Shown piece by piece: positions 19,296 through 39,894 of a stretch of DNA of 64,000 nucleotides. A program made the position numbers and the translations under genes. The notes under the pieces are model-generated. The model did no database searches, was not told where the DNA came from, and was given only the letters and a program-made list of their open reading frames with translations. Each line of letters opens with the position of its first letter. Position 1 is the stretch's first letter. This DNA comes from an uncultured bacterium (GTDB lineage: Bacteria; Chloroflexota; UBA5177; JANWHV01). The DNA is taken from contig CAWHAE010000016.1 in assembly GCA_963827235.1 (NCBI GenBank), positions 768,001 to 832,000 of the forward strand, written 5' to 3'.

Positions 19296-20255
19296 CTAGT
19301 CCCATTTGGCCAACGCCGTGCCGTCCCACGTGAACTTGTGAACGTCGCCTCCGGCGCTGTCGGTCACGTACACGACAGCGTGGTGTCTGTCGACGACGTC
19401 GAACAGACGCGTGACCCCGGTGAACTGGCCGCGGCCCGTCCCCCACGATCCCCACCAGCCCAGCACCTTGCCGTCGCTCGACAGCATCTGGAGGCGATGA
19501 TTGCCGGAGTCTGCCACATAGACGCTGCCGCTGCTGTCGGTGGCAACGTCGTCCGGCTGGTCGTACTGCCCCAGCCGTTGTCCCCGCTTACCCCAAAGTG
19601 CGAGGAGCTTGCCCTTCGAGGACAACACCTCGATGCGGTTGCTCGCCGTGTCGGCCACGTAGATCTTGCCCTGCTTGCCGATGGCGATGCCCTGCGGCCC
19701 GGATCCCTTGGTCTTCCAGATGGCGAGCGGTACACCGGCCGGCGAGAACACGAGGATTCGGTTGGTGCTGGCATCGGTCAGATAGACACGTCCCTGTGTA
19801 TCTATGGCCAAGCCCTGAGGATCGAATCCCAGAGGCCATAGGGCCAGCCGCCTGCCAGAGCTGGAAAACTCCTGTATCTTGCCGGCGCTGGCAACGTACA
19901 CGTCGTCGTGTGCGTCGATAGCAATCGGCCCCGGTCCGGAGTCAGTTTCCGCGGGACCGCCGAAACTACGCCAGGTGGCGAGTAGCTTGCCCGCGGAAGA
20001 GAGCTTTACCACGCGCCGGTTCGCATTGTCTGCCACGTACACGTTTCCCGCTGCATCGGCCGCGAGATAGGTCGGGTCGCTGAATCGCAGGACTCCGCGT
20101 GCCGGGCCGGTCTGGCTCATGGCCCAGCTCGCCCCTCTCACGACGGTCACCGCCACGACGATGCCTATGCCGATCAGCAGCACTCCAAGCAACATCCCGA
20201 CCAGCGCCGCGGAGCGCGCCTGCTGCCGGGAGACTCCGCTTGTCGCGGATGCCAT
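19296..20255 (-). CDS. Membrane-anchored NHL-repeat beta-propeller protein
   Basis: N-terminal TM helix; repeated P.G.AID..G.VYVAD..N.RI motifs. Confidence 0.88.
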   Translation of the reverse strand: MASATSGVSRQQARSAALVGMLLGVLLIGIGIVVAVTVVRGASWAMSQTGPARGVLRFSDPTYLAADAAGNVYVADNANRRVVKLSSAGKLLATWRSFGGPAETDSGPGPIAIDAHDDVYVASAGKIQEFSSSGRRLALWPLGFDPQGLAIDTQGRVYLTDASTNRILVFSPAGVPLAIWKTKGSGPQGIAIGKQGKIYVADTASNRIEVLSSKGKLLALWGKRGQRLGQYDQPDDVATDSSGSVYVADSGNHRLQMLSSDGKVLGWWGSWGTGRGQFTGVTRLFDVVDRHHAVVYVTDSAGGDVHKFTWDGTALAKWD

Positions 20256-20952: not shown

Positions 20953-21056
20953 ACCTTATCGCGTCCTCCTGGACGTACGTGGGAGGTGTCCAGTACGAAA
21001 AATCTGGTAGGCCGGCTCCGGGAGCTCATCCGATAGAGTTCAACAGAAAGCACGAC

Positions 21057-22703
21057 ATGCGATCGGTATATTCCCTGGTTCTTGCGTTCGGGCTCGTAGC
21101 TCTCGGCATGCCTCGTGCAACCGCGAGCGCGGAGACTGTGAACGTCACTATCGCCAGCGTGACTGTTGCTCCCAGCACGATTCAGCAGACAGATACCGTG
21201 AGCTTGAGCACGTCGGTAACCAGCTTCTCCTCCCTGGCCAACGTGATCGTCGACTTCGAGGTGCTCGACTCAGCGAACAACAGTGTCTATCAGACCTGCC
21301 TGACCGGGATTGACCTCACCGCCAACGCACAGCGCAGCTTCTCGGTTCCCTGGCTGGTCCCCGCCGGCCTGCCGGCAGGCACATATCAGCTCCGGACCGG
21401 CGCGATCAACGCCTGGTGGTCGTACACCTATGCCTGGAGCGACACGGCCGCGGCGATCTCGGTCGAGGGCACCAGCACGAGTATCAGTATCGTGAGCGGC
21501 TCGGTCACTCCGGCTACACTAGCCCCGTCCGGCACCGCCAGCCTGGCCGCCGTGGTGGGCAGCACAGCGGCCTTGTCCGGTGCCCTCGTCGATTTCGAGA
21601 TCTACGACGGGCAGAACAACCGGGTCTTCCAGACCTACCAAAGCGGAATTGCTCTCGCGGCCAACGCCCAGCAGACCGTCACGGCTTTGTGGACTGTTCC
21701 GCCGAGCCAGCCGGGCGGCATCTATCTGCTGCGCGTAGGCGTATTCGACGGGACGTGGTCCTACCGTTATGCCTGGCTCTCCCCAGCCGCGAGCTTCACC
21801 ATCACGGCTCCTCCACCAGCCGGCCCGCCGGGCTCGTCTGCTGTGGCATTCGGTGTGGAGATTCCGGGAGACCTCTGGAATCCGTCGGTGATCGACAGCT
21901 TCACCGCGATGGTTGGTACGGCGCCCAAGATCGTCATGTGGTACCAGGACTGGGTCAGCGATAGCGGCTTCCACCTGGCCTCCATGCAAGCGTACGCCGC
22001 ACGGGGTGAGGTACCCGTAGTGACATGGCTTCCAGATGCGGCTGGTTCGTTGCTCAACTTCGATGCCGCGGTTGCGAGTGGCAGCTACGATGGTTTCCTG
22101 CACCAGTGGGCGCAGGCGGCCGCAGCCTGGGGCCATCCGTTTTACCTGCGATTTGCCCCCGAAATGAATGGTCCCTGGGAAGGATTCTCACCCGGCGTCA
22201 ACGGCAATACGACGGCCGACTATGTCGCGATGTGGCGGCACGTGCACGATCTCTTCGTGCAGGACGGCGCCGTCAACGTCCGCTGGGTTTGGTGCCCGAA
22301 CATCGATTCATACGGCTCGACTCCCTACGCAGCCGTCTATCCGGGCGATGCGTACGTGGACTGGGTCGGCTTCGACGGCTACAACTGGGGGCACTACGAT
22401 CAGTGGCATTGGTGGACCTCGCTGCACGACGTGTTCGCGCTATCGTATGCCGATCTCACGGCTCTCACGAGCAAGCCAATTATGATTGGCGAGACGGCGT
22501 CCACGGAAATCGGCGGAGACAAGGCGGCCTGGATTACCGAGGGATTCCTGAACGACATCCCCGCGTACTTTCCCCGCGTCCGTGCCGTGATCTGGTTTGA
22601 CGAGGACAAAGAGGTCGATTGGCGGGTGAACTCCTCACAGTCCTCGCTTGCCGCGTTCCAGCAGGTGGCAGCTTCCCCACTTTACCAGGGTCAGCTTCCA
22701 TAG
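21057..22703 (+). CDS. Secreted GH26 glycoside hydrolase with two N-terminal Ig-like modules
   Basis: Signal peptide; LRFAPEMNGPW (acid/base), YPGDAYVDWVGFDGYNWG, KPIMIGETAS (nucleophile), WF..DKE.DWR. Confidence 0.9.
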   Translation: MRSVYSLVLAFGLVALGMPRATASAETVNVTIASVTVAPSTIQQTDTVSLSTSVTSFSSLANVIVDFEVLDSANNSVYQTCLTGIDLTANAQRSFSVPWLVPAGLPAGTYQLRTGAINAWWSYTYAWSDTAAAISVEGTSTSISIVSGSVTPATLAPSGTASLAAVVGSTAALSGALVDFEIYDGQNNRVFQTYQSGIALAANAQQTVTALWTVPPSQPGGIYLLRVGVFDGTWSYRYAWLSPAASFTITAPPPAGPPGSSAVAFGVEIPGDLWNPSVIDSFTAMVGTAPKIVMWYQDWVSDSGFHLASMQAYAARGEVPVVTWLPDAAGSLLNFDAAVASGSYDGFLHQWAQAAAAWGHPFYLRFAPEMNGPWEGFSPGVNGNTTADYVAMWRHVHDLFVQDGAVNVRWVWCPNIDSYGSTPYAAVYPGDAYVDWVGFDGYNWGHYDQWHWWTSLHDVFALSYADLTALTSKPIMIGETASTEIGGDKAAWITEGFLNDIPAYFPRVRAVIWFDEDKEVDWRVNSSQSSLAAFQQVAASPLYQGQLP

Positions 22704-22811: not shown

Positions 22812-24176
22812 TCATGGAGCACGCCTCTGATAGACCGGCGAGGCCACGACCTGCCGGTATGCCGCGAGCGTGGCAGGAGAAGAGTCTACTCGCCAGTCTT
22901 CCTCCTTGTTCTCATCGAACCAGACCACTGCCCGAACTCGCGGGAAACTGGCGGGTAGGTCGTGAAGCAACCAGTCCACGATCCAGGTTGGCTTGTTCCC
23001 GCCCAGCTCGGTAGAGCCGATCTCCGAAATCATGATCGGTTTTGACGAAAGTCCCATCAAGCTCTCGATCGAGGGACCGAACAGCTGGTACCCACTTATC
23101 CATGTGTGAATATCTCCATTCGGTCCCCAATTGTACCCGTCCAGTCCCATCCAGTCGACGTATGCATCACCGGGATAGACGGAAGCAAACGGCACGCTGC
23201 CTTCAAACTCGATGTTGGGCGCCCACACCCATTGCACGTTCGTCGCGTGCTCCGCGGCGAATAAGTCATGAATATGTCGCCAGGCAGCTACAAATGTTTC
23301 CGCGGTGTTTCCATTTACGCCCGGGCTCCAGGCGTTCCAGTTGCCGTTCTCCTCCCCGGCGAAACGCAGGAGGGTCGGCTTCCGGTACGCAGCAGCATCG
23401 CGTGCATACTGCTGGATAAACGTGTCGTACGATCCATCCAGGATTTTCCCGTCGGGCACGTCGGGCTCCCACGAGATCATCGGCGTCACTCCGCGACGGC
23501 TGTATTCGCGCAGGAGACCGGTGTTGAGATTGCGGGCATCGGGCGAGAGCCACGATTGGTAGTAGTTCACGATCGCCGGCATTCGCCCTGTGAGCTTGGC
23601 GTACTGATCCACCACCCCCGGATCGCTCTCGGCTCCCGGCATCCAGGCACCCAGAGCGATCGTGTTGGGGGCAGCCACGACGAAGAGATCGGTACAACAG
23701 CTCTCCGCGTAGTGAGTCGTCCAGTCTGCACTGAATACGTTGACCAGCGCGTGGTAACTGCCCGCCGGCTGCGTCGCAGGAATAGCCCACGTTGCCGAAA
23801 GAGGCTTGTAGCTGCCCGCCGGCAGGTTGAGCGTGGCTCGATAGGCATACACGCTCGACCACGTTGGGCTGTACACCTCGACCGAGACGCTAACGCCCGT
23901 GAGTGCCATGCTCGATGCGATTGCCGTGTGCAAGACTGTTCGCCTGCCGGCCAGGTGTGCGGAAGGCTGCGTGGTGAGGTCAGCTATCGAGATCGTGACG
24001 CCGTCGATTGTGGCTGGTGCGCGCACCGCGTCGCTCGGATGGTACCTGGGGCCGGCAGTTGGCAGACCCAGGAAAGGCCCTACGTGGGGTCCGGTCGACT
24101 CGGCGCGCAGCACCTGCACGGCGACATAGGTCACGATGAGCAGCCCCACCACGACAGTCACCGCCCTGCGATTCAT
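22812..24176 (-). CDS. GH26 glycoside hydrolase with N-terminal anchor/signal and one Ig-like module
   Basis: ISWEP, LRFAGEENGNW, YPGDAYVDWMGLDGYNWG, KPIMISEIG. Confidence 0.9.
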   Translation of the reverse strand: MNRRAVTVVVGLLIVTYVAVQVLRAESTGPHVGPFLGLPTAGPRYHPSDAVRAPATIDGVTISIADLTTQPSAHLAGRRTVLHTAIASSMALTGVSVSVEVYSPTWSSVYAYRATLNLPAGSYKPLSATWAIPATQPAGSYHALVNVFSADWTTHYAESCCTDLFVVAAPNTIALGAWMPGAESDPGVVDQYAKLTGRMPAIVNYYQSWLSPDARNLNTGLLREYSRRGVTPMISWEPDVPDGKILDGSYDTFIQQYARDAAAYRKPTLLRFAGEENGNWNAWSPGVNGNTAETFVAAWRHIHDLFAAEHATNVQWVWAPNIEFEGSVPFASVYPGDAYVDWMGLDGYNWGPNGDIHTWISGYQLFGPSIESLMGLSSKPIMISEIGSTELGGNKPTWIVDWLLHDLPASFPRVRAVVWFDENKEEDWRVDSSPATLAAYRQVVASPVYQRRAP

Positions 24177-24442: not shown

Positions 24443-25882
24443 GTGATAGCTGTGCCCGACCTTGGGATCAGACTCGACTGGCCGAGCGTGCCCGGCTATG
24501 TGATGCTGTTTCTGATCAGCATCATTGGCTTCCGGCTGCTCTACTACTTTGACAGCTACTTCTTTCACTGGCGTCTCTATCGCAAAGTGCAGCGGGTCAC
24601 CAACGACGACCTTCGAGCCCTGGCTGAGTTACCGTTCGTCAAGATCCAGGTTACGACCGCGGGAACAGTTGGTAGCACCGAGGTGATTCGCCGGGGCATC
24701 CAGAACGTGGTCGACCTGGCCATGGAAGCCCCAGAGCTCTACGGCGGCAAGATCAGCGTGGAAGTGATTACCATGCCGTCCGAACAGGTGCAGGCCTTGG
24801 GAGCGGAATTCGCAGGCGCCCCTATACCGGTCGAGATCCTGGTCGTCCCTCCGGAGTACCAGACGCCGCTCGGCACGAAGCTGAAAGCCCGGCAGATGCA
24901 CTGGATCGTAGAGAGGCGGCGGCAGGGATACAACCGAAAGCCGGGGCGAACGTTCATCGTCCACTACGACGAAGACAGCGTGATGATGCCGCGCGAGATG
25001 CGCAAGCTTATCCGGTACCTGGCCACGACGGACAAGAAGCTGACCGAAGGTCCCATCTATTATCCCCTTGAGTATGACCGTGCCAGCCTGATCTGCCAGG
25101 CCATGGAAGCCAATCGACCGGTCGGATGCTTCGAGTGTCGCGAGGTGATGGAAGCCGGCACTCCGCTGCATCTGCACGGGTCGAATCTCGTGCTTGACGA
25201 GGAACTGGAAAACGACCTCGGCTGGGACCTCGGCACGCTCGGCGGCCAGGCGTTCATAGCTGAAGACTTCGTCTTCGGTATGCTGGCCTACCTGAAGGAG
25301 GGGCCGCAGGTCTTCGGCTGGCACGGCGCGGTCATGCTGGAGGAACCGCCGTTCTCCCTCAGGAGCGCCTTCAAGCAGCGCTATCGGTGGGTGCTGGGCA
25401 CCTTGCAAGGCCTGTCGATGATGCATCGCATGCCGGAGTACCATCGCCTGGCGCCTCGGGAGCGCTTCAATCTGATCTGGGGCACAAGGTATCGTATCCT
25501 GACTTTCGCGCTGGGTCTGCCTACCGGCATTACGTCGTTGCTCTACCTGCTCTATCAGGCCTGGCTCCTGATCACCGGGCACAGCTTTCTGCCGCTGCCG
25601 GCACCGTTCATCGTCTGGCTGATCATCGTCGGCGTACTCTGGATCAACTCGCTGCTGATCGGCGTGTGGTACAACCTGGCCGAGCCGGTGCCGGCGCCGG
25701 CAGCCACGCGCTGGATGACGGCGATGCGGGTGCTGACCGTGGCGCCCATCGCCGGCGTGTCGGAGAGCACTGCTGCCGTCTGGGCCGTCTTCAACTGGTT
25801 GCTGGGCAACCGCGCGGTCTCCTGGCAGCCGACGCCCAAGACTGTAGAGGCCGATGGCATCGTCAGCCGCGGAGTGGCCTAG
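24443..25882 (+). CDS. Membrane GT2 glycosyltransferase, Egghead/BRE-3 (beta-1,4-mannosyltransferase)-like, with synthase motifs
   Basis: GGAG SD and GTG start; N-terminal TM; TKLKARQMHW, IVHYDEDS, EGPIYY, HGSNL, IAEDFVFG, EEPPFS...KQRYRW; C-terminal TMs ending W.PTPK. Confidence 0.85.
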   Translation: MIAVPDLGIRLDWPSVPGYVMLFLISIIGFRLLYYFDSYFFHWRLYRKVQRVTNDDLRALAELPFVKIQVTTAGTVGSTEVIRRGIQNVVDLAMEAPELYGGKISVEVITMPSEQVQALGAEFAGAPIPVEILVVPPEYQTPLGTKLKARQMHWIVERRRQGYNRKPGRTFIVHYDEDSVMMPREMRKLIRYLATTDKKLTEGPIYYPLEYDRASLICQAMEANRPVGCFECREVMEAGTPLHLHGSNLVLDEELENDLGWDLGTLGGQAFIAEDFVFGMLAYLKEGPQVFGWHGAVMLEEPPFSLRSAFKQRYRWVLGTLQGLSMMHRMPEYHRLAPRERFNLIWGTRYRILTFALGLPTGITSLLYLLYQAWLLITGHSFLPLPAPFIVWLIIVGVLWINSLLIGVWYNLAEPVPAPAATRWMTAMRVLTVAPIAGVSESTAAVWAVFNWLLGNRAVSWQPTPKTVEADGIVSRGVA

Positions 25883-28428
25883 TGAGGCGACTGCGGGCGC
25901 TGGTGGTGTTTCTGCTCTTCAGCTGCAGCGGAGCCGCGGTATTTGCAGTCTATCTCATCGTGCCGTCGATCATCGCGGTGAACGCCATCTTCCAGGGCAG
26001 CGTGGTGGGATTGATCGCCGTCCTGGCAACGCTCGCGGTTACGGAAGTGCTGATCTTCGGCGTGCTGATCAGGACAACCTGGCGTCGAGCGGCGCTGCTC
26101 ATCCTGCAAGAGCGTCGCGCATCGGTTCGTCAGAAGGCCAGCTTCCACGTCGAGATCAGTGAGCCACACGCCGGTGCGCTGGCTCCGGGTCAAAGGATCC
26201 GTGCTTTGGCCGTCGACTCGAGTGCCGGCGGACTGGCCGTCCTCGTGGAGCCGAATCAGTGGGCAGCGGGCCGAGCAGGCTCGCGCATGTGCCTGCACTT
26301 GCGGGAGAATGCGACCGTAGAGGCTGAACCGGTCGATCTCGCCCGCGTCGTGGTCGACGGCCGCCCTCACGACCTGATCAGACTTCGCCTAGCCGACGCC
26401 GGTGCAATCCTGCGACCTCCGAACGGCGGTCTGGTCGACCGACAGTCCAATGGGCACGGCCCGTCGGTCGACGGCAGCATTGCCATCCCGAGCAACGGTC
26501 ACGTCGTAACCGGTAGCCACGACGCAGCCGGTAGGCATGTGGGAGCGGGCGTGCTGTCCGTGCTGGCGGCGTTGGGCCTTGGGATCCGCCGGCTGGCCGC
26601 GGTTCTGCCATGGCCGCTTTGGCTCGTTCTGGGCGTGCAGGCGGGCGCAGCGCTCAGCCTGAGCAATACGGCCTTCCAGGATGAAGCCACGTACCTCTTC
26701 GCGGGCCGGCAGATCGTCCACCACCTCGTGGGCGGTCCCGCTCCGACCATGTATGTGGGCGACTTCCTTGCCGGCACCACGCTGTATCCCACGCTGGCAG
26801 GTGCGCTCGACCTCGCGGGCGGGTTGGAAGCGGCGCGATTGTTCAGCCTCTTCTGCATGCTGTGTGCGACGCTAGGAGTCTACCTGGCTGCCAAGGTCCT
26901 CTACGACCGCACCAGCGGGCTCTTCGCCGCGTCCTTGTTCGGCGTCCAGGGATCCGTCCTGTTTCTCAGCCACTTCGCCACGTTTGACGCGATGTGCGTG
27001 GGACTGCTGTCGCTCGCCGCCGCCATGGCCGTCTGCGCCGGTGCGTCGCGCAGGCTCTGGCTTTCCCCGGCTGTCTCGGTCGTAGTGCTGCTTGCCGTCG
27101 CCACGACGTACATTGCCGTTCTCTATGTGCCGACGATACTGGCTCTTCTCTGCTGGAAGGCATTCGTGGAACACGGATGGCGACAGATGCTGCTCCGCGG
27201 CGCGCTGGCAGGCGGAGTGCTGGGCGCTGCCGGCGGCTACGCCTTGTCCCGGTATCCTACCGCAATCTCCGCCTTCGACTCGGCCATCCTGCACCGCAAT
27301 GCCGCTGTCCCAGAACCCTGGACGGTGCTCGTGCAGCTAGTTGTCTACCTGACCGTCCTCGTAACGGTACTGGCAGTCGCAGGCGTGTTCTTCAGTGGCG
27401 GCGCCCGCCTCCCGCTGGCCCTGTCGCTGCTCGTGACGTCACTGGCAGCTCCCGCGTACCACATCTACGACGGCGAGTTCACCTCGCTTCAGAAACATGT
27501 TACCTACGGCCTCATCTTCATCGCGCCCGTGGCCGGCTATGCGCTGACTCGGCTGGGCGGCCATCGCCGGCTGCTCGGCGTTGTGCTCTGCCTGCTCATC
27601 TTCACGACCGGGTACCAGGCAGATCGGCGGCTCTTCGATTGGTGGCCCAACAGCAGCTCCATGATTGCCGTGGTGCGGAGCCAGGTGCAGCCGGGCGATC
27701 GTATCCTTGCCGAGGAAGATGAGGTGCTTCAGTATTATCTGACGAAGTATGAGGCAAGTCTCGGACACCTGCAATGGAGCCAAACGTACAATTTCTCCTA
27801 CTACAATGCCAAGGGGCAGTTCCTACAGGGCGTGCCGGCCTACAAGGCGGCGATCTCCGACGGCTACTTCGACCTGGTGATCCTGCGCTATAGTCCTACT
27901 GTCACCATGGATCGTGCGATCGACGGTGGTCTGCGCGACGGCACCAGGTACGAGCTGGTGGCCAAGATTCCATACGATACCGCCTTTGGCCCGAGTGCCT
28001 ATTGGATCTGGCGCAAGCGCCCGTTGACGGCGGCTCCCAGGCCGCCCCTGCCTGCTCAGGCTGCCGTGCCGCTTCTGGTCGTGCACAACGAGCTCCACAC
28101 GGTCCTCGGCGGCCGGACTCAGCCCTGCAGCCTGCGCGCCAATACGAACGGTCCCATTCAACGCGGCTGCGTCGTGATCTCCAGCCGGTGGCTGCCCTAC
28201 GGCTCCGTAACCTACTCTCTCCGCTATCCTGACGGCACGACACAGACATTCTCGGACAGGGCGGATGGACGGGGACATTCGCTGCACCCATTCGCCGTGC
28301 ACTATCTACCGCCGCTGCACGCGGCGCATGGAGAGCCCTCCACCGTGGTATCGATCCAGGTCACGGCAACAAGCAAGGATGGCACGCAACGACAGGTGGC
28401 GAGCACCCGCTTCACCGTGATGCGGTAG
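25882..28428 (+). CDS. Fusion protein: 2TM + PilZ + GT-C (PMT/ArnT-like) glycosyltransferase + C-terminal extracellular domain
   Basis: GTG overlaps the upstream TAG. PilZ motifs ERRASVR (26110-26130) and DSSAGG (26215-26232); GT-C start FQDEATYL..G, GGLEAARLFSL, ATFDA; multi-TM region; C-terminal beta-rich domain. Confidence 0.85.
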   Translation: MRRLRALVVFLLFSCSGAAVFAVYLIVPSIIAVNAIFQGSVVGLIAVLATLAVTEVLIFGVLIRTTWRRAALLILQERRASVRQKASFHVEISEPHAGALAPGQRIRALAVDSSAGGLAVLVEPNQWAAGRAGSRMCLHLRENATVEAEPVDLARVVVDGRPHDLIRLRLADAGAILRPPNGGLVDRQSNGHGPSVDGSIAIPSNGHVVTGSHDAAGRHVGAGVLSVLAALGLGIRRLAAVLPWPLWLVLGVQAGAALSLSNTAFQDEATYLFAGRQIVHHLVGGPAPTMYVGDFLAGTTLYPTLAGALDLAGGLEAARLFSLFCMLCATLGVYLAAKVLYDRTSGLFAASLFGVQGSVLFLSHFATFDAMCVGLLSLAAAMAVCAGASRRLWLSPAVSVVVLLAVATTYIAVLYVPTILALLCWKAFVEHGWRQMLLRGALAGGVLGAAGGYALSRYPTAISAFDSAILHRNAAVPEPWTVLVQLVVYLTVLVTVLAVAGVFFSGGARLPLALSLLVTSLAAPAYHIYDGEFTSLQKHVTYGLIFIAPVAGYALTRLGGHRRLLGVVLCLLIFTTGYQADRRLFDWWPNSSSMIAVVRSQVQPGDRILAEEDEVLQYYLTKYEASLGHLQWSQTYNFSYYNAKGQFLQGVPAYKAAISDGYFDLVILRYSPTVTMDRAIDGGLRDGTRYELVAKIPYDTAFGPSAYWIWRKRPLTAAPRPPLPAQAAVPLLVVHNELHTVLGGRTQPCSLRANTNGPIQRGCVVISSRWLPYGSVTYSLRYPDGTTQTFSDRADGRGHSLHPFAVHYLPPLHAAHGEPSTVVSIQVTATSKDGTQRQVASTRFTVMR

Positions 28429-28681
28429 ATCTCGGGCGCGACACCCAGCGGACGTCGCGATGTCGACTGCACGGTCTGCCTCTTCCCCGGAAGCGCTGCC
28501 CGGGGTATCGTGGGATGTACCGGGACGTCCTGCCGGCTGACCACGATGCGCGGCCTAGTATCCGCACCGACCCCGCAAGCCTCTTTGAGCGCGTACCGCG
28601 CTTCAGTGAACGATATGTCCAATGCCTCGCAGCCTGCCACATGGTGGCCCTTGCGATGTGATGCAGAGAACGGTCGGCGCA

Positions 28682-29989
28682 ATGATCAAGCGAAACTCGG
28701 TGGCGGTAGTCACCTGGCTGCTGGCCCTGCTCACGCTCCTGGCTCAGCCGATAGACGGCGCTCCCGCCGCGGTACGGGCGAGTGCTCAGCACGCTGCCGG
28801 CGGCACGGTCCGCATCACGGGCCTGCTGGCACGACCTACGACGGCGCTGGCAGGCAGCAGCGTCATCCTGCAGACGGCGGTAGCCGCGCAGACCGCGTTC
28901 AGAGCGCTCATCGTATCGATCGAGGTCTACGGTCCGACGTGGAAGAGCGTCTACGCCATTCGCGCGTCGGTCGACATCGCGGCTCAAGGATCCCGCTCGG
29001 TCGCGGCGTCGTGGAGTATCCCGTCTTCCGAGGCAACCGGCACCTACCATGCGCTGGTGAACGTCTTCAGCGGCGACTGGACGATCCACTATGCGGAGCG
29101 CTGTTGCATCGACCTTCACGTGACCAACGCCTCCGGCGCCATCGCACTCGGCGCCTGGGTCCCTGGGGCTGACTCGAATCCGGCCGTTATTGACCAGTAC
29201 GCGCGTCTCACGGGCAGATACCCCGCCATCGTCAACTACTACCAATCGTGGTTACCTCCCAACCCGCGCGATCTCAACCTGGGGCTGCTGCGAGAATACG
29301 AGCGCCGGGGCATCACGCCGATGATCTCGTGGGAGCCCGACGTGCCGGACGAGAAGATCATCGGAGGCTCGTACGACTCGTTCATCCGCCGGTACGCGCT
29401 GGACGCCGCCACGTTCGGGAAGACCATTCTGCTGCGCTTCGCTTGGGAGGAAAACGGGAGCTGGACCGCGTGGAGCCCCGGTGTGAACGGTAACACCGCG
29501 CTCACCTTCATCGCGGCCTGGCGCCACATCCACGACATCTTCGTGGGGGAACACGCGACCAACGTCCAGTGGGTGTGGGCGCCCAACGTCGTCTTTCCCG
29601 GAAGCGCTCCCTACTCTGGCCTGTATCCCGGGGACGACTACGTCGATTGGCTGGGACTCGACGGCTACAACTGGGGAACTTCGACCACTTACAGCTACTG
29701 GTCCAGCGGTGACCAGATCTTCGGTCCCTCGATCGAAAGCCTGATGGCATTGTCGAGCAAGCCGATCATGATCTCAGAAATCGGATCGGCGGAGCAAGGC
29801 GGAAACAAGGCCACCTGGATAACGGACTGGTTCCTGCGTGATTTGCCCACCAGCTTCCCGCGCGTGCGAGCGGTCGTGTGGTTCGATCAGAACAAGGAAG
29901 CCGACTGGCAGATAGACTCGTCTGCCTCGTCCCTGGCTGCCTTCAGGCAGGTCGTGGCATCACCGCTCTACCAGGGACGGCTACCGTAG
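28682..29989 (+). CDS. Secreted GH26 glycoside hydrolase with one Ig-like module (paralogue of 22812-24176)
   Basis: Signal peptide; ISWEP, LRFAWEENGSW, YPGDDYVDWLGLDGYNWG, KPIMISEIG. Confidence 0.9.
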   Translation: MIKRNSVAVVTWLLALLTLLAQPIDGAPAAVRASAQHAAGGTVRITGLLARPTTALAGSSVILQTAVAAQTAFRALIVSIEVYGPTWKSVYAIRASVDIAAQGSRSVAASWSIPSSEATGTYHALVNVFSGDWTIHYAERCCIDLHVTNASGAIALGAWVPGADSNPAVIDQYARLTGRYPAIVNYYQSWLPPNPRDLNLGLLREYERRGITPMISWEPDVPDEKIIGGSYDSFIRRYALDAATFGKTILLRFAWEENGSWTAWSPGVNGNTALTFIAAWRHIHDIFVGEHATNVQWVWAPNVVFPGSAPYSGLYPGDDYVDWLGLDGYNWGTSTTYSYWSSGDQIFGPSIESLMALSSKPIMISEIGSAEQGGNKATWITDWFLRDLPTSFPRVRAVVWFDQNKEADWQIDSSASSLAAFRQVVASPLYQGRLP

Positions 29990-30440: not shown

Positions 30441-30523
30441 CGCTGTAAAAAGGTAAACCCATCGCGAGGTGGGGACACAAAGCCAAGGGTCTCGGCGCTG
30501 CCGAGATAGCCCGGTTGCCAGCA
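30441..30523 (+). ncRNA. Cyclic di-GMP-I (GEMM) riboswitch
   Basis: GGTAAACCCATC-GCGA-GGTGGGGACACAAAGCCAAGGGTCTCGG..CCGAGATAGCCCGGTTGCC matches the class-I consensus: GNRA loop, GGYAAACC/GGACRCAAAG, P3, P1 GCTG/CAGC. About 110 nt upstream of the GH26 start. Confidence 0.88.
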
Positions 30524-30631
30524 CCACAAGCTGACTACCCTCCTGTGTCGCGACCGGAGGTTCCAAGCCCGAAGAACCTGGTGCATCGGCTCCGGCAACT
30601 CACCAAAACAGAGTTAGGCGGAGATCACGAC

Positions 30632-33082
30632 ATGTGTACGTCTGTTGCACTGTGGCGGGTACCACTCGCCCTGCTCCTCATTTTGTCGGTGGCTCACTTT
30701 ACGCTGCCCGGCCCGGGGGCACGTGCCGATTCCTCCAGCATCGGCATCTCCAATGGTGCCGTCAGCCCAAGTACCGTCGCGCCGCCCAATAGCGCTGCGC
30801 TCTCCGCCACCATCTCTTCGCCGGCGGCTATGCCCGGCTCGATCATCGACTTCGAGGTGTTCAGCGCGGCGGGCACCCGCGTCTATCAGACGTACCTGAG
30901 CGGAGTGAACCTGGCGGCGAACAGCAGCCAGACGTTCACCGCCACATGGCCGGTGCCGGTCAATACCGCCGTCGGCACCTACACGGTCAACGTGGGCGTC
31001 TTCAATCAGTGGTGGTCCTATCGCTATGCCTGGGCATCACCAGCCACCTCCTTCCAGGTGACCACTTCCCTGCCCACGCCCACCAGCACGCCCGTCCCGG
31101 TGAGCATCTCCGGCGTCGTCGTGACTCCCGCGAGCATCGCCGCGAACAGCAGCGCAAACCTATCCGCCAAGGTGACCACGGTCAGCGCGATGCCCGGCTC
31201 GATCATCGACTTCGAGGTCTTCAACGCGGCAGGCACTCGCATCTACCAGACGTATCAGACCGGAGTGAACCTGGCTGCCGGCAACACCCAGAGCTTCGGC
31301 GCGATCTGGCCGGTACCTCTCGCGCAGGCCACCGGCACCTACACGGTCGACGTAGGTGTCTTCAACCAGTGGTGGTCCTACCGCTATGCCTGGGCTGCGC
31401 CTGCCGCCTCGTTCCAGGTCACCGCCGCTCTTCCGACCAACACGCCGCTGCCGACGGCAACCAGCACACCGGTGCCGGTTGGCATCTCCGGTGTCGCAGT
31501 CAGCCCATCCAGCGTCCCCGCGAACAGCAACGCGGCGATGTCGGCCAAAGTCACCACGGTCAATGCCGTGCCCGGCAGCATCATCGACTTCGAGGTGTTC
31601 AATGCATCCGGTGCTCGCGTCTACCAGACCTATCAATCGGGCGTGAACCTGGCGGCCAACAGCGCGCAGACCTTCACCGCTGCATGGCCTGTTCCGCTCA
31701 GCCAGGCTGCCGGCGCCTACTCGGTCGACATCGGAGTGTTCAGCCAGAACTGGGCGTCTCGCTACGCCTGGGCTGCACCAGCTACGTCGTTCCAGGTGAC
31801 CGCGGCGCTCCCGACCAACACGCCGCTGCCCACGGCAACCAGTACGCAGGTGGCGGTCAGCGTTTCGAGCGTTGCCGTCAACCCCTCCACGGTGTCTGCA
31901 AGCAGCAGCGCCGCGCTCTCAGCCAAGGTTACCACGGCTGGCGCGATGGCCAGCTCCATCATCGACTTCGAGGTATTCGACGCATCCGGCACTCGCCAGT
32001 ACCAGACATATCAGACCGGCGTTAATCTGGCGGCGAATGCCACGCAGAGCTTTAGCGCCGCCTGGCCCGTGCCCGCTTCGACGGCACCGGGCACCTATAC
32101 GCTCGATGTCGGCGTCTTCAATCAATGGTGGTCCTATCGCTTCGCCTGGACCGGCGCTTCATTCCACGTGGCGGCGCCGATACCTACCGCGACCAGCACG
32201 CCTGGACCGCCGTCGGCACCGCTTGCACTGGGTGCCTGGATTCCCGGCGACGAGAGCGATCCGTCGGTCGTCGATAGCTTCGCCTCCATGGTCGGCGTAA
32301 CGCCCAAGGTCGTCTCGTGGTACCAGGACTGGGAAGATAACCCAGGTTTCCAGGTGAACGCAATGAACGCCTACCTTTCCCGTGGCGAGATGCCCATCAT
32401 ATCCTGGCTGCCAGACGGCAGCAGCGCCACCCCGACCTTTGACCGGGCCGTCGCCAACGGGAGCTACGACAGCTTCATCAACCAGTGGGCCATGGCCGCT
32501 GCCGCGTGGGGACATCCGTTCTACCTTCGTTTTGCCTGGGAGATGAACGGCTACTGGCAGCCATTCTCGCCCGGTGTGAGCGGGAACACCACTGCAGACT
32601 ACGTTGCCATGTGGCAGCACGTGCACGACCTGTTCGTGCAGGACGGCGCCACGAACGCGCGCTGGGTCTGGAGCCCCAACGTGGAATACTACGGCAGCAC
32701 GCCGTTCGCTAGTGTCTACCCAGGCGATGCCTATGTCGACTATATCGGCATGAGTGGCTTCAACGACGGGCATACAGACCAGTACCATTGGTGGACCTCG
32801 CTGCACGACGTCTTCGCGCAGTCCTATACCGACCTGACCACCATGTCCGCCAAGCCGATGATCATCACGGAGACGGCCTCCACGGAGACAGGCGGAGACA
32901 AGGCAGCCTGGATCACGCAGGGCTTTCTGACGGACATACCTGTCTCGTTCCCGCGTGTCAGGGCCGTCGTCTGGTTCGACGAGAACAAAGAGCAGGACTG
33001 GCGAGTCAACTCGTCGGCCGCGTCCCTTGCTGCTTACCAGCAGGTCGCAGCGTCGCCGCTCTACCAGGGGCAGCTCTCGTAG
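30632..33082 (+). CDS. Secreted GH26 glycoside hydrolase with four Ig-like modules and Pro/Thr linkers
   Basis: Signal peptide; four repeats containing IIDFEVF (DNA at ~30842, 31202, 31580, 31958); LRFAWEMNGYW, YPGDAYVDY, KPMIITETAS. Confidence 0.92.
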   Translation: MCTSVALWRVPLALLLILSVAHFTLPGPGARADSSSIGISNGAVSPSTVAPPNSAALSATISSPAAMPGSIIDFEVFSAAGTRVYQTYLSGVNLAANSSQTFTATWPVPVNTAVGTYTVNVGVFNQWWSYRYAWASPATSFQVTTSLPTPTSTPVPVSISGVVVTPASIAANSSANLSAKVTTVSAMPGSIIDFEVFNAAGTRIYQTYQTGVNLAAGNTQSFGAIWPVPLAQATGTYTVDVGVFNQWWSYRYAWAAPAASFQVTAALPTNTPLPTATSTPVPVGISGVAVSPSSVPANSNAAMSAKVTTVNAVPGSIIDFEVFNASGARVYQTYQSGVNLAANSAQTFTAAWPVPLSQAAGAYSVDIGVFSQNWASRYAWAAPATSFQVTAALPTNTPLPTATSTQVAVSVSSVAVNPSTVSASSSAALSAKVTTAGAMASSIIDFEVFDASGTRQYQTYQTGVNLAANATQSFSAAWPVPASTAPGTYTLDVGVFNQWWSYRFAWTGASFHVAAPIPTATSTPGPPSAPLALGAWIPGDESDPSVVDSFASMVGVTPKVVSWYQDWEDNPGFQVNAMNAYLSRGEMPIISWLPDGSSATPTFDRAVANGSYDSFINQWAMAAAAWGHPFYLRFAWEMNGYWQPFSPGVSGNTTADYVAMWQHVHDLFVQDGATNARWVWSPNVEYYGSTPFASVYPGDAYVDYIGMSGFNDGHTDQYHWWTSLHDVFAQSYTDLTTMSAKPMIITETASTETGGDKAAWITQGFLTDIPVSFPRVRAVVWFDENKEQDWRVNSSAASLAAYQQVAASPLYQGQLS

Positions 33083-33279: not shown

Positions 33280-34266
33280 TCAGTGGGAGTGGCTGAGCCA
33301 TCGCCAGGTATAGCCGTAGAGCGTGGCATACGTGGACAGCGCCTTGAGCGGCCGAAACCCCAGCCGCCACTGGCGCTTGGGATCGAAATATAGGCTGATG
33401 AACAGGCTGGGCACGAACAGCGCGGGCGAAAGCGCCACCAGCAGCTTGCCATACCACCGGTCCAGCGGCACCACCTGCATCCGCCGCTCCGGTGCCAGCA
33501 ACGCCTCCTGCGCGTGCCCCATGCCGTAGCTGAACCCCTTTCGCACCAGGGCACGCACGTGGCTGGGCGGGCCATGGTATACCCAGCAGTGGCCGGGAAT
33601 CACGAAGCGATAGCCCGCCCGGCGGATGCGGAAGAAGAACTCCGTGTCCTCGCCTGCCTGGAGTTCCTCGTTGAAGCCGCCCACCTCCTCGAAGACCGAT
33701 CGCCGCACCAGGCAGCAGGTGGTGGTGATGCCCGTGAAGCCGTAGTGATCCAGGGTCGGATTGCTCTCCGTGTCCCGTTCCATCACCGGATAGACCCACC
33801 GCGGCACCTCCTCAGCGACCCGCTGCTGAAACCGGCTCGCGTCGGGCGGCAGCAACTTCGAGGTGCCCGTCACGCCGATCGATGGATCGGCCCGCATGCT
33901 CTCGACCAGCCGCTCGAGGTCGCGGTCGCCGCCGAAGTACGCGTCGTCGTCGACGAAGAGGATGAACTCGCCGCGCGTCTGGGCCACGCCGAGGTTGCGT
34001 GCCCGACCAGCCGGATTGACGCCCCGTACTACGACGACCTCAAAGTCGGCAAATGTCTGCCCGTCCAGGCTCTGCAGCACTCGCTCTACGTCCCCACTCC
34101 ACGACGCGATCACCACGGCCACGGTGCGCGCCGGCACCCTGACGGTACCCGTGTCGGGCTGCTCCCGGGCCGCCGTGCCTTCGATAGCCCGCACGTCGTA
34201 GGTCCGCGCCGGCGATCTGGACCTGATGCTCGTATGTGCTTGATCCACCCTCATGCTCCCCACCAT
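33280..34266 (-). CDS. GT2 glycosyltransferase (twin A)
   Basis: VAVVIAS, ARNLGV..RGEFILFVDDD, VFEEVGGFNE..AGEDTEF. GGAG SD before ATG 34266. Confidence 0.88.
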   Translation of the reverse strand: MVGSMRVDQAHTSIRSRSPARTYDVRAIEGTAAREQPDTGTVRVPARTVAVVIASWSGDVERVLQSLDGQTFADFEVVVVRGVNPAGRARNLGVAQTRGEFILFVDDDAYFGGDRDLERLVESMRADPSIGVTGTSKLLPPDASRFQQRVAEEVPRWVYPVMERDTESNPTLDHYGFTGITTTCCLVRRSVFEEVGGFNEELQAGEDTEFFFRIRRAGYRFVIPGHCWVYHGPPSHVRALVRKGFSYGMGHAQEALLAPERRMQVVPLDRWYGKLLVALSPALFVPSLFISLYFDPKRQWRLGFRPLKALSTYATLYGYTWRWLSHSH

Positions 34267-35151
34267 GCTCGTCTTTTCTCCAGCTTGATGCAACGCCCGG
34301 CGCCCCGGCGTGGCCGTCAACCGGATGGCGTGGCAAACGCTGCCCGATTTCCCATGTGGCGGCGCGTCGGTCGCGCTACTACACCCCTTCTCTACGTGGC
34401 CGGCATAGCGTTCAGTGAGGGTGACTGAACCACCTCCAGGTATAGCCGTAGAGCGTGGCATACGTGGACAGCGCCTTGAGCGGCCGAAACCCCAGCCGCC
34501 ACTGGCGCTTGGGATCGAAATATAGGCTGATGAACAGGCTGGGCACGAACAGCGCGGGCGAAAGCGCCACCAGCAGCTTGCCATACCACCGGTCCAGCGG
34601 CACCACCTGCATCCGCCGCTCCGGTGCCAGCAACGCCTCCTGCGCGTGCCCCATGCCGTAGCTGAACCCCTTTCGCACCAGGGCACGCACGTGGCTGGGC
34701 GGGCCATGGTATACCCAGCAGTGGCCGGGAATCACGAAGCGATAGCCCGCCCGGCGGATGCGGAAGAAGAACTCCGTGTCCTGGCCGGTCTGCAGGTTCT
34801 CGTTGAAGCCGCCCACCTCCTCGAAGACCGATCGCCGCACCAGGCAGCAGGTGGTGGTGATGCCCGTGAAGCCGTAGTGATCCAGGGTCGGATTGCTCTC
34901 CGTGTCCCGTTCCATCACCGGATAGACCCACCGCGGCACCTCCTCAGCGACCCGCTGCTGAAACCGGCTCGCGTCGGGCGGCAGCAACTTCGAGGTGCCC
35001 GTCACGCCGATCGATGGATCGGCCCGCATGCTCTCGACCAGCCGCTCGAGGTCGCGGTCGCCGCCGAAGTACGCGTCGTCGTCGACGAAGAGGATGAACT
35101 CGCCGCGCGTCTGGGCCACGCCGAGGTTGCGTGCCCGACCAGCCGGATTGA
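33304..35151. repeat. Near-identical ~716-bp direct duplication (33304-34019 and 34436-35151; offset 1132)
   Basis: Compared by eye: identical except 6 substitutions at 33651-33666 vs 34783-34798. Confidence 0.9.
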
Positions 35152-35410
35152 TGCCGCGCACCACCACCACGGCGACATCGGTGAACGACTGGCGATCCAG
35201 GCTAGCCAGCACACGCTCAACGTTGCCGTTCCAGGAAGGTACGATCACGGCTACCTCGGCCGTCCAAGGGAGCGGCTCGTCCGGCGGTGGGTGACCGTCC
35301 GTGCCGCCGATCACGATGCTCCGACGGACCGGCCGGTTGCTTGACTCCTTGTGCGCGCCGGACGACTGTGGCACCGGTACTCTGTCGCTGACTGTTTTGC
35401 TAGCTTGCAT
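34412..35410 (-). CDS. GT2 glycosyltransferase (twin B)
   Basis: VAVIVPSWN, FVDDD, GGFNENLQTGQDTEF. Start overlaps the stop of the upstream GT4. Confidence 0.88.
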   Translation of the reverse strand: MQASKTVSDRVPVPQSSGAHKESSNRPVRRSIVIGGTDGHPPPDEPLPWTAEVAVIVPSWNGNVERVLASLDRQSFTDVAVVVVRGINPAGRARNLGVAQTRGEFILFVDDDAYFGGDRDLERLVESMRADPSIGVTGTSKLLPPDASRFQQRVAEEVPRWVYPVMERDTESNPTLDHYGFTGITTTCCLVRRSVFEEVGGFNENLQTGQDTEFFFRIRRAGYRFVIPGHCWVYHGPPSHVRALVRKGFSYGMGHAQEALLAPERRMQVVPLDRWYGKLLVALSPALFVPSLFISLYFDPKRQWRLGFRPLKALSTYATLYGYTWRWFSHPH

Positions 35411-38382: not shown

Positions 38383-39894
38383 AGGATGGGGATTTCCTTG
38401 CCTTGGATTGTTCTGGAGGGACCGATGCGGCACAGCAGTCCGATGGAACGGATCACCCTATGAAGGAAGGGAGTGCCGGAAATGCAGCACAGGCCTCCAG
38501 ACGGCCCGCCTCATCGTGACGACGGCCTGGAGAGTGCACATCGTGCGGCAGGGCAGGTCGACCGAGGACCGCCCACCCTGTCTCCCGCCCTGTCGTCGAG
38601 CGGCCTAGCTGATCCCCACAGTGTTAGCGACCGGCGCCGCCTCGCGACCCAAGGCAACTCATGCCGTGCGTCAAGCCTCAGGCATCGTCGCCCGATTAGC
38701 ACGATGAACATTATAGCATAAGCATTGCGTGTGTTTGTCAATCTCGGTTGTCAACACAGCAATGTACGATTGACGTTTCCTTTTCGACTCCGCTGAGTGC
38801 GCGACAGCCATCTATCCACAATTCATTCGATTGCCATACTGGTCACGGCTATTTCGGAATGTCAACGATATGCTCGTCCTCTGGGAGCGATCAGCCCACG
38901 CCAGAGAGCAGATCTATTCATAACCTCCGTGGCCTTGATTCAGGCCATATAGACGTACATCGCACCGAATTGCGGCATATCCGGCTAAACTCTGTTGGTC
39001 ATTGCCACCAAACTGCTTGCATTCTAGCGACTTGGTCCCTTACGATACGTATTGCAAGGACGCGGACTATGGCTGAGCCGATAGAATTGGTGGCACGTAC
39101 CGCAGATGCTGTGGTATTGGATCAGTTTGATCCGGCTTAGGCGGACATTTGGTCCCAGCGTTTAGCAGAAGAATCTACTTGAGATCGCAGCTCGTTCTCA
39201 ACAGCGAGCATGGTGCTCTACAACAGTCATCGCCGAAAGTCTCTCGCTTCGCGAATGGCGATTGTAGTCTGACGTCGTGATCCAGCGCTGGATCGCGGCA
39301 GTTGTACCATTGGGTTGTACGCCGGTCGTACCGCCCGAAGGTGAATCGTGCGTGGTTGCCGCGGGAGCCGAGCAGTCGGCACCGGCAGGAGCCGCGAGTT
39401 TCAGATTGAGCACAGCGCGGAAAGCTCACTAACCGGCCGTCGGCCGGTGTGGACAGGATCCATGCTCTCGAGCACCAGCTCGAATGGCTCCTGAACGCAG
39501 CTCTCTGCAGCAGATGTTGAACCTAGCGGAAGGGCCTAGTCTGCCTGACGAAGATGCCGACAGTGCCAAACGCGGAGCGTGCCGGTGCGGTTGGGCGGGC
39601 CCGAGTCGGGTCCGCATCAATGGTGATGCACGGGCAGATCACCTTCACGCAGTGGCAGTCAACAGACCGGAAAGGTAGGGACTACTCTATGCGCACCTGT
39701 ACGCGGTGAGCCCTTCTGATCGGTAGCCAGCGATAACGCCGTCCCTCACGGCGCCGAACACCCTGTTCGTTTACAGTCGCCATCCAGGCATCGACTGCGT
39801 GGAATAGCTCGTCGCGTTCCCGTGCAGTTGCCATTACGCGGAGCGGAGCAGCTTTGCTGCGTCCATTCAGCCCGCAACCTTGTTCCAGTGAGGA

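Follow-up and report, generated by a model that had tools for sequence, protein, structure and literature searches.

A GT2 synthase that ends at its gating loop and an adjoining PilZ–GT-C fusion protein: a candidate split polysaccharide synthase in an uncultured Chloroflexota bacterium

The locus described here raises the question of whether a membrane polysaccharide synthase of the BcsA type can be divided between two genes, such that its last transmembrane (TM) helices and its PilZ domain are provided by a second protein that also carries a glycosyltransferase domain of its own. The DNA in question is a stretch of 64,000 nucleotides (nt), hereafter called the window, from an uncultured Chloroflexota bacterium (GenBank assembly GCA_963827235.1, contig CAWHAE010000016.1, positions 768,001 to 832,000). 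The window has a G+C content of 63.8% and belongs to a 7.98-Mb genome of 21 contigs that is 95.9% complete with 9.06% contamination. The closest named relative at the locus is a Chloroflexota metagenome-assembled genome. Two adjoining open reading frames (ORFs) are at issue (Table 1). One encodes a glycosyltransferase family 2 (GT2) protein of 479 residues, and the other encodes an 848-residue protein, here called the PilZ–GT-C protein, in which a two-helix hairpin leads into a PilZ-like barrel and then into a GT-C membrane glycosyltransferase domain. The architecture of these proteins, the point at which the GT2 chain ends, the partnership of the hairpin with the GT2, and the conservation of the relevant motifs are all observed in silico. 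The explanation that we favor as a whole, with moderate confidence, is that the GT2 is a processive synthase-translocase of the BcsA/hyaluronan-synthase type that is naturally cut just past its gating loop, that the hairpin completes it, that the PilZ domain serves as its switch, that the GT-C domain faces outward, and that the product is a beta-glucan.

The GT2 protein consists of a single N-terminal TM helix, a GT-A domain, and C-terminal TM/interface helices, with a gating-loop-like motif near the end of the chain. Both the GT2 catalytic motifs and the gating-loop motif that mark BcsA-type synthases are present. Specifically, D176, E274-D275, and Q312-R-Y-R-W316 are invariant among 32 aligned members of the family, as are W461, T464, P465, and K466 of the gating-loop-like motif WxPTPK. 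When the AlphaFold2 (AF2) model was used as a Foldseek query, E. coli BcsA emerged as the top match (2.2e-9), ahead of the synthases of hyaluronan, chitin, and plant cellulose. VIA-align superimposes residues 9-479 of the model on residues 221-630 of E. coli BcsA (9b8v_E; Z 23.7, root-mean-square deviation (rmsd) 4.7, 377 aligned) and residues 11-479 on residues 94-516 of R. sphaeroides BcsA (4p00_A; Z 19.9, rmsd 5.2, 388 aligned). The likeness is visible by fold search; the GT2 sequence has no match in the PDB at E ≤ 0.01, and NCBIfam returned nothing useful for either the GT2 or the PilZ–GT-C protein.

In R. sphaeroides BcsA, the gating loop (positions 499 to 517, motif FxVTxK) is described as lying between TM6 and TM7, after which the chain continues through TM7, TM8, an R580xxxR584 motif, and a PilZ domain at residues 584-676, and a proposed minimal synthase core includes the two TM helices past the gating loop (PMC8892547, PMC10374906). 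The WxPTPK motif of the GT2 family appears comparable in sequence to FxVTxK. Judged from the model, the GT2 ends exactly where the last two helices of a BcsA-type synthase should start. Those two helices and the PilZ domain are not in the GT2 chain, and the tail is found in the next ORF. The 120 GT2 homologues listed (53-77% identity) come from Chloroflexota/Ktedonobacteria and from actinobacteria, among them Arthrobacter, Nocardioides, and Sinomonas, and 114 of them are 325-544 residues long. Not one of the 120 matches the hairpin, even at E ≤ 10. A hairpin had been expected within the long homologues P0032, P0037, P0043, and P0057 (645-721 residues), and none was found in their chains; one TM helix and a glycoside hydrolase (GH) domain follow WxPTPK, and this domain is GH113-like by Pfam in three of the four.

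Two TM helices had been placed at the start of the PilZ–GT-C protein by the initial annotation, and the AF2 model (18-row alignment, mean predicted local distance difference test score (pLDDT) of 69.5) agrees, with helices at residues 2-36 and 41-84. We propose that this hairpin corresponds to the pair of TM helices found past the gating loop in synthases of the BcsA type. In a phylum sample of 401 genomes, the GT2 is present in 13 at a cut-off of E ≤ 1e-60, and, with G000 set aside, a profile of the N-terminal module matches a same-strand ORF directly adjoining the GT2 in 10 of the remaining 12 genomes. The module is a stand-alone protein 3′ of the GT2 in G042, G264, and G368, is fused to GT-C 3′ of the GT2 in two genomes of the same genus (G172 and G181), and lies 5′ of the GT2 in G400, G376, G280, G232, and G392. 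No module stands beside the GT2 in G164 and G287, which carry the most distant GT2s (41-42% identity). The reverse search, conducted with a 19-row hairpin profile at E ≤ 1e-12, recovers 12 of the 401 genomes, each with one copy that is located beside the GT2; among these is G336, in which the hairpin sits just 5′ of a GT2 cut by the contig end. Overall, the hairpin accompanies the GT2 in 12 of 14 GT2-bearing genomes. Three weaker matches to the hairpin profile (E 1e-4 to 9e-4) mainly involve its PilZ half.

Metagenomic contigs carry a same-strand hairpin at 70 of 80 GT2 loci, with the hairpin upstream in 23, downstream in 37, and inside the GT2's own ORF in 10. In these ten fused loci, a linker of ~20-45 residues separates WxPTPK from the hairpin, past which come a third TM helix and a GH domain located outside. 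Eight of the ten loci that lack a hairpin have less than 1 kb of flanking sequence on at least one side, the exceptions being L133 and L153. As a control, 13,282 ORFs from 1.30 Mb of membrane-protein-rich loci yielded no hairpin-profile match besides the gene itself. Because the hairpin is beside or fused to the GT2 at 70 of 80 loci and in 12 of 14 genomes, including as ten single ORFs, the split is a trait of the whole GT2 family. The earlier idea that the PilZ–GT-C protein resembles the missing tail of a split BcsA is therefore supported in silico, with the tail residing in the next gene, but the arrangement is not special to this gene, since the entire family of ~475-residue GT2s is split.

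Structure prediction also points to an association. For a complex of the GT2 (32-row alignment) with residues 1-180 of its partner (17-row alignment), the prediction scored 0.77, compared with 0.00 for the best of three controls; the mark set for this score is reached by 116 of 157 solved complexes and by 2 of 215 mismatched pairs. The runs share at least 71% of their contacts, the partner pLDDT is at least 69, and the predicted interface joins residues 39-49 and 366-435 of the GT2 (TM helices) to residues 10-67 of the partner. A predicted interface with the GT2 had been called for by the initial annotation, and it falls on the hairpin. The truncation at the gating loop, the hairpin partnership, and this prediction all support the view, likewise put forward at the outset, that the GT2 and the hairpin together make up a single synthase resembling BcsA, whose last two helices would be supplied in trans.

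The start codon of the PilZ–GT-C gene (GTG at 25882) begins inside the GT2 stop codon (TAG at 25880-25882), as first noted, and a GGAG sequence is located 8-11 nt 5′ of this start. The resulting TAGTG overlap suggests that translation of the two genes might be coupled. These boundaries could also be read as an artefact of assembly or annotation, with the GT2 and PilZ truly forming one ORF or with PilZ and GT-C belonging to two genes, which we consider exceedingly improbable. The split is retained in two other genomes of the genus (L109 and L110), whose GT2s are 68-69% identical to the one studied here and whose stop and start codons share 4-nt overlaps (GTGA and ATGA, respectively), and therefore the junction is not an indel artefact. 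The same two-ORF layout recurs in a metagenomic contig (L121), and the reading frame from PilZ into GT-C runs unbroken through seven independent sequences (P0004, P0005, P0142, P0143, L109, L110, and L121). The 114 homologues noted above whose chains end without a tail argue in the same direction.

The segment that follows the hairpin carries two motifs associated with c-di-GMP (cyclic di-GMP) recognition. An RRxxxR motif begins twelve residues past the RTT at the end of TM2, and a (D/N)xSxxG motif lies within the barrel; the RASVR and DSSAGG sequences on which a PilZ domain was originally proposed are indeed present and are kept in relatives, in a domain that is divergent and has no Pfam match of its own. 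Neither motif is disrupted in any of the seven GT-C fusions (P0001, P0004, P0005, P0142, P0143, L109, and L110) or in stand-alone hairpin-PilZ proteins such as P0144-P0148 and L162. A 3-sequence profile searched against the PDB returned a single match at E ≤ 10, namely the PilZ protein YpfA (E 0.056), with both motifs aligned. With a 17-sequence profile and the same limit, YpfA was matched over its whole domain (8.7e-5), followed by the BcsA PilZ domain (4i86, 0.089) and one unrelated protein (0.63), and the motifs align to their equivalents in YpfA and the BcsA PilZ domain. A HMMER search over 1.84 billion representatives identified 40 relatives of the module at E ≤ 1e-3, and Pfam PilZ matches occur in 9 of 14 relatives scanned, with 4 above the 22.5-bit cut-off. 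When the whole model was submitted to Foldseek, the PilZ domain of YcgR (5y6g) appeared at rank 41 (E 0.026, with a TM-score of 0.48 relative to the target and an rmsd of 3.3 across 97 columns). From these profile and model comparisons, we accept the barrel as a divergent but probably genuine member of the PilZ superfamily that has both ligand motifs and might bind c-di-GMP.

Beyond the barrel, the linker that had been expected between PilZ and GT-C is apparent in the AF2 model as a disordered segment at residues 173-213, which varies in sequence among relatives and preserves the frame in all of them. The multi-TM region that follows (residues 214-586) is well predicted, with pLDDT values of 74-96 for most 10-residue blocks and many above 90. 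Foldseek relates it to the GT-C enzymes ALG12 (9.3e-9), yeast and human STT3 (6e-8), ArnT (2.8e-6), and PglB (1.5e-5), and also to AftD and DPY19. Pfam PMT_2 scores 20.5 bits on the PilZ–GT-C protein, which is under its 26.1 cut-off, whereas GT-C relatives carry PF13231 and one of them (P0143) attains 47.4 bits in the GT-C Pfam test. On these grounds we accept the middle domain as a GT-C, in keeping with the PMT/ArnT-like domain with a DE motif that was initially described; the acidic pair, D267-E268, is invariant in the aligned sequences. The extracellular beta domain described at the same time stands in part. A beta-rich region does occupy residues 716-848, at low confidence, whereas residues 591-712 are alpha/beta. 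This alpha/beta domain is matched up to about residue 712 in 79 of 80 GT-C loci, and the beta-rich region, for which tblastn gave no match in those 80 loci, is conserved in P0004 and P0005.

A candidate maker of the donor for the GT-C domain is encoded elsewhere in the window. The GT2 at 5210-6175 (+) resembles enzymes that make dolichyl- or undecaprenyl-phosphate sugars, although its matches to the AglJ, ArnC, and PpgS models all fall under the cut-off, and a homologue of this gene lies within 8 kb of 26 of the 79 stand-alone GT-C relatives, often just downstream. Such placement fits a polyprenyl-phosphate-sugar donor for this subfamily of GT-C proteins.

The genes that flank the synthase bear on the identity of the polymer. 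Four GH26-like paralogues surround the two genes (Table 1), and other lineages carry homologues of these paralogues close to the GT2 or joined to it. Residues 168-446 of the paralogue at 28622-29989 match residues 3-281 of PDB 2bv9, which is titled 'endoglucanase H' from C. thermocellum (E 1.7e-55, 279 residues). This structure is identified as that of the beta-1,3/1,4-glucanase CtLic26A (PMC10470212), and the linkage of hydrolases to synthases described in PMC8892547 is the basis of the analogy drawn here. By this analogy, the hydrolases suggest that the product might be a beta-glucan, possibly one of mixed linkage. Because they are lichenase-like, the product need not be cellulose. A beta-mannan product, considered because of Pfam matches to GH26 and GH113, was dropped, given that the lichenase match (E 1.7e-55) compares with 6.7e-8 for the best mannanase. 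As a separate observation, the + strand paralogues at 20979-22703 and 30515-33082 carry Wzt_C-like, FxLYD, GEVED, and MG2-like N-terminal domains that are possibly glycan-binding.

If these parts function together, the GT2 and PilZ–GT-C gene products would assemble into one synthase in which residues 1-68 of the PilZ–GT-C protein serve as the two post-gating-loop TM helices and complete the GT2 channel. With its N-terminus inside and two TM helices preceding it, the barrel would be cytoplasmic and would sit beside the GT domain and the C-terminal gating loop. The likeliest switch would be for c-di-GMP binding at RRxxxR and DxSxxG to free the gating loop of the GT2, as in BcsA, and thereby to turn polymerisation on. 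The GT-C domain would begin at the cytoplasm, place D267-E268 outside, and end in outside domains, such that its active site faces outward. Because it would be tethered to the channel, the GT-C could glycosylate the emerging polymer or a nearby acceptor, moving sugar from a polyprenyl-phosphate donor either to branch or decorate the chain or to modify that neighbor. It is c-di-GMP binding, gating, the GT-C acceptor, and the identity of the polymer that we infer in this scheme.

A number of observations weigh against this reading. Pfam PilZ (PF07238) has no match on the PilZ–GT-C protein at E ≤ 1, and a genome-wide scan with the same model at E ≤ 10 reports six other PilZ domains and not this one. 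The hhalign comparison of the 3-sequence N-terminal profile to these six domains is weak (25% probability over 39 columns), and the six strands within residues 88-170 of the whole-protein AF2 model have pLDDT values of only 50-77. The stand-alone hairpin-PilZ proteins of G368, G264, and G042 (L113, L114, and L115) have RRQAFS or RAPAFT in place of RRxxxR and AAGPDE or PAGPDL in place of (D/N)xSxxG, and thus c-di-GMP control is not intrinsic to the system. Intact motifs also do not guarantee binding, to judge by RiGT2, which carries both PilZ motifs and depends on its PilZ domain to be active, but for which neither binding of c-di-GMP nor activation by it was detected in vitro (PMC10374906). 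In addition, 49 of the 70 metagenomic matches cover the hairpin only, with 14 extending part-way into the barrel and 7 reaching its end (one of them, L197, via a spurious fragment), and metagenomic contigs and kin genomes are non-independent samples, several contigs being near-identical. The complex model contains no confident contact between PilZ and the GT2, all confident contacts of the partner being within residues 10-67. Single-chain synthases have already been solved, and therefore the complex score shows likeness rather than proof of binding; its passing of the mark may partly stem from this likeness. Finally, the Dpm1/ArnC-like gene at 5210-6175 sits 20 kb from the PilZ–GT-C gene, and in 79 of the 80 best GT-C loci among GTDB representatives, the GT-C match occurs alone, with neither the module nor this GT2 within 8 kb. 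With these relatives unlinked to the GT2, it is the fusion alone that ties the GT-C to a role in the polymer.

The divergence of the barrel from Pfam, the absence of both motifs in the same-fold relatives of G042, G264, and G368, the behavior of RiGT2, and the fact that most hairpins of the family have no PilZ would all be expected if the PilZ–GT-C protein were only a structural co-polymerase. Under this alternative, the hairpin completes the synthase and stabilises it, the barrel has ceased to sense c-di-GMP and is a scaffold or spacer, and regulation is exerted elsewhere, for example in transcription. We regard it as unlikely. Every one of the seven GT-C fusions retains both motifs, over identities of 32-60%. 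Moreover, the motifs are lost together, which suggests joint selection where they are present, and the genome has a large c-di-GMP network with 27 GGDEF matches.

A different wiring is that PilZ places the GT-C domain to which it is fused, and not the GT2, under c-di-GMP control, for example over the glycosylation of a protein, lipid, or wall polymer, with the hairpin mainly localising the enzyme near the synthase. Intramolecular control is the simplest arrangement for two domains in one chain, and the lack of confident contact between PilZ and the GT2 and the frequency with which this GT-C subfamily occurs without the GT2 agree with it. The position of the barrel does not: a disordered linker of ~40 residues separates it from GT-C, whereas it directly follows the hairpin, as in BcsA. 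Furthermore, hairpin-PilZ proteins free of GT-C adjoin the GT2 (P0144-P0148 and L162), and control of the GT-C alone is thus improbable in our estimation. The occurrence of such proteins beside the GT2 also implies that the PilZ-hairpin unit is older than, or independent of, the GT-C fusion. We therefore retain a split synthase, completed by the hairpin and switched by PilZ, as the preferred reading.

The distribution of the fusion helps to place the PilZ–GT-C protein within the family. A search of 5.8 billion clustered proteins recovered no full-length relatives beyond two (P0004, 59% identity; P0005, 58% identity), and the N-terminal part is present at just one of the 80 best GT-C loci (L015). 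The search of representatives added two distant fusions with the same order of domains (P0142, 709 residues; P0143, 981 residues, with a 3-keto-disaccharide-hydrolase-like domain at its C-terminus) and about ten stand-alone hairpin + PilZ proteins of 180-255 residues, and L121 is the only metagenomic hairpin match that carries GT-C. The GT-C fusion is rare, with three close and two distant relatives. What remains constant is the hairpin, and its attachments vary; usually it is a tiny separate gene 5′ or 3′ of the GT2 without PilZ. From these sequence comparisons, PilZ, and with it c-di-GMP control, seems to have been added in particular lineages to a two-piece synthase that is older.

Two further groups of hairpin-bearing proteins were observed. 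Proteins with the order GT2-hairpin-TM-GH (~970-1030 residues stop-to-stop), like the GT2-TM-GH chains of P0032, P0037, P0043, and P0057, have a lichenase/GH113-like hydrolase fused to the synthase, and fused GT2-GH architectures occur at L132, L134, L135, L149, L151, L152, L157, and L172. Downstream hairpin proteins of ~125 residues (L137, L140, L141, L143, L145, L146, L150, L154-L156, L158, L171, and L188) match the profile only to about position 123, end inside the barrel just past the second motif, and look like truncated PilZ domains.

It is tempting to speculate that the hairpin is a portable docking module, which plugs nothing, a PilZ domain, a hydrolase, or PilZ + GT-C into a split synthase, and that in this genus it builds one machine, with c-di-GMP opening the cytoplasmic active site while the tethered GT-C glycosylates the nascent beta-glucan on its way out of the channel. 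We offer this larger scheme tentatively and consider it doubtful as yet. If true, it would provide the first example both of a GT-C linked to c-di-GMP and of an enzyme that branches a polymer during its synthesis in a synthase-dependent pathway. A search of the open-access literature and bioRxiv, supplements aside, found no description of a PilZ–GT-C fusion or of the GT2-hairpin family, which agrees with the earlier impression that the order of two TM helices, PilZ, and GT-C does not belong to a described system, and no PilZ–GT-C architecture appears in the accessible portion of a PilZ census preprint (10.1101/814665).

Synthase-dependent exopolysaccharides such as cellulose, alginate, poly-N-acetylglucosamine (PNAG), and hyaluronan are models for the coupling of polymerisation to secretion and for matrix control by c-di-GMP. 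The family described here amounts to a natural dissection of such a synthase, since its hairpin occurs by itself, within the synthase chain, attached to a sensor, or attached to both a sensor and a second enzyme, and as a result the roles of TM7-8 and the communication between PilZ and the gating loop become directly testable through the exchange of naturally occurring parts. A GT-C tethered to the channel might represent a new way of branching or decorating a polymer during export. The system would also extend c-di-GMP-controlled matrix synthesis to Chloroflexota, which have been little studied in this regard, and a product that proved to be a beta-glucan with mixed linkages or branches would be of biotechnological relevance.

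Table 1. Positions of the synthase genes, their parts, and the flanking hydrolase genes in the window
Feature	Position (nt)	Strand	Evidence or remark
GH26-like (lichenase-like) hydrolase paralogue, Wzt_C-like N-terminal domain	20979..22703	+	Pfam
GH26-like hydrolase paralogue	22812..24176	-	Pfam
Processive membrane GT2 synthase, 479 residues	24443..25882	+	Pfam Glyco_trans_2_3 E 3e-17; AF2 pLDDT 89.3; fold matches
Gating-loop-like motif W461-Q-P-T-P-K466 (WxPTPK)	25823..25840	+	13 residues before GT2 stop
TAGTG stop/start overlap	25880..25884	+	Sequence; overlapping GTGA / ATGA in relatives L109 / L110
PilZ–GT-C ORF, 848 residues	25882..28428	+	
Two-helix TM hairpin, residues 1-68 (proposed synthase tail), ends in RTT motif	25882..26085	+	AF2 helices; profile; interface
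RRxxxR motif R78-R79-A-S-V-R83, in linker after TM2	26113..26130	+	Sequence; aligns to YpfA RRxxxR
Divergent PilZ beta-barrel, residues 86-172, predicted cytoplasmic	26137..26397	+	AF2; PDB profile; Foldseek; relatives' Pfam
(D/N)xSxxG motif D112-S-S114-A-G-G117	26215..26232	+	Sequence; relatives
Disordered Gly/Pro/Asn-rich linker, residues 173-213	26398..26520	+	pLDDT <50 for 173-221
GT-C (PMT_2/ArnT-like) membrane glycosyltransferase domain, residues 214-590	26521..27651	+	Foldseek; sub-cut-off PMT_2
D267-E268 in first outside loop of GT-C	26680..26685	+	Unchanged across an alignment of 18 GT-C sequences
Extracytoplasmic alpha/beta domain, residues 591-715	27652..28026	+	AF2 block pLDDT ~63-87 (591-712); common to stand-alone GT-C relatives
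C-terminal beta-rich region, residues 716-848, Cys749 + Cys763 conserved	28027..28428	+	Low pLDDT; closest relatives only
GH26-like hydrolase paralogue, closest to C. thermocellum lichenase CtLic26A	28622..29989	+	PDB 2bv9
GH26-like hydrolase paralogue, Wzt_C-like + FxLYD + MG2-like domains	30515..33082	+	Pfam

Other genes of the window also deserve mention. An NHL-repeat (ScyF-like) protein is encoded at 19296-20255 (-), 5.6 kb upstream of the PilZ–GT-C gene with GH26 paralogues between, and such a protein is seen also with L015, L109, and L110. In two genomes of the same genus, it lies immediately 3′ of the PilZ–GT-C gene on the opposite strand, and this difference in placement suggests that the region has been rearranged locally. 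On the - strand, two GT2 ORFs (33280-34707 and 34412-35737) overlap by ~300 nt, which may reflect either a wrongly set start between tandem paralogues or a frameshift; a homologue of these ORFs is located near the fusion gene in G172 (L109). At 39895-41457 (+), ~11 kb from the PilZ–GT-C gene, a 520-residue GT4 glycosyltransferase (Glyco_transf_4 + Glycos_transf_1) carries a GAF domain at its C-terminus and would be a second fusion of a sensor with a glycosyltransferase. The region 41454-51444 (-) is a sugar-utilisation cluster with GH116 beta-glucosidase-like genes, one of which is apparently split across 43978-46597, components of an ABC sugar transporter, and a LacI-family regulator. No Pfam or NCBIfam match was found for the proteins encoded at 14397-16604 (+; 735 residues) and 36676-38433 (-; 585 residues), and the former gene has an unusual G+C content by codon position (0.50, 0.57, 0.83).

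Among known systems, BcsA offers the closest parallel. Like the GT2 described here, it is a processive enzyme of that family that carries Q(Q/R)xRW and a gating-loop motif, it is the best structural match of the GT2 model, and its elements occur in the same order, namely gating loop, two TM helices, RxxxR linker, and PilZ barrel. In contrast, the chain described here is cut past the gating loop, the two TM helices and PilZ are the product of a separate gene, and the PilZ chain runs on into GT-C. The motif here is WxPTPK rather than FxVTxK, and the GT domain has just a single TM helix ahead of it. No match to BcsB (PF03170) was found in the 95.9% complete genome at E ≤ 0.01. The hydrolases also differ, in that those at this locus are GH26 lichenase-like enzymes and BcsZ belongs to GH8.

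Two systems show that a synthase of this kind can depend on a separate membrane protein. The GT2 synthase Alg8 is described as being under the control of a PilZ domain that belongs to a different inner-membrane protein, Alg44, which also has an extracytoplasmic domain (PMC8461298). Here too, PilZ would act in trans on a membrane protein that also bears an outside domain. In Alg44, however, PilZ is at the N-terminus and is accompanied by one TM helix and by a membrane-fusion domain in the periplasm, whereas in the present protein two TM helices precede PilZ, the hairpin is homologous to segments fused to synthases, and the outside domain belongs to a GT-C enzyme. The GT2 PgaC, in turn, is reported to need a small inner-membrane protein encoded by a neighboring gene, PgaD, with c-di-GMP acting at the PgaC-PgaD interface (PMC8461298, PMC8892547). 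The locus resembles this pair in having a small membrane co-subunit of the GT2 encoded by an adjacent gene. Unlike the hairpin protein, PgaD has no PilZ and no known fold, and a search with PF13994 gave no match in the genome at E ≤ 1, nor in 14 module proteins. IcaA and IcaD form a comparable PNAG synthase pair.

For the outward-facing enzyme, the nearest analogue is BcsG, a membrane-anchored modifier that docks to BcsA and decorates the emerging polymer (PMC8892547; PDB titles 9fmv and 9fmz). Both would be membrane enzymes that face outward and are held at a synthase, but BcsG is a phosphoethanolamine transferase that sits on an N-terminal extension of BcsA, whereas the GT-C domain is covalently fused to the hairpin and PilZ. 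With regard to product, BgsA and RiGT2 are c-di-GMP-linked GT2 synthases of mixed-linkage beta-glucan (PMC5567048, PMC10374906), and the lichenase-like hydrolases point to a related product at this locus, a likeness drawn from description. Both of these enzymes are single-chain, however, with BgsA having a non-PilZ C-terminal binding domain and RiGT2 having PilZ in cis. The GT2/PilZ–GT-C system thus lies outside both the single-chain BcsA architecture and the PgaD family. PilZ domains in trans, as in Alg44, and small membrane co-subunits, as in PgaD, are already known.

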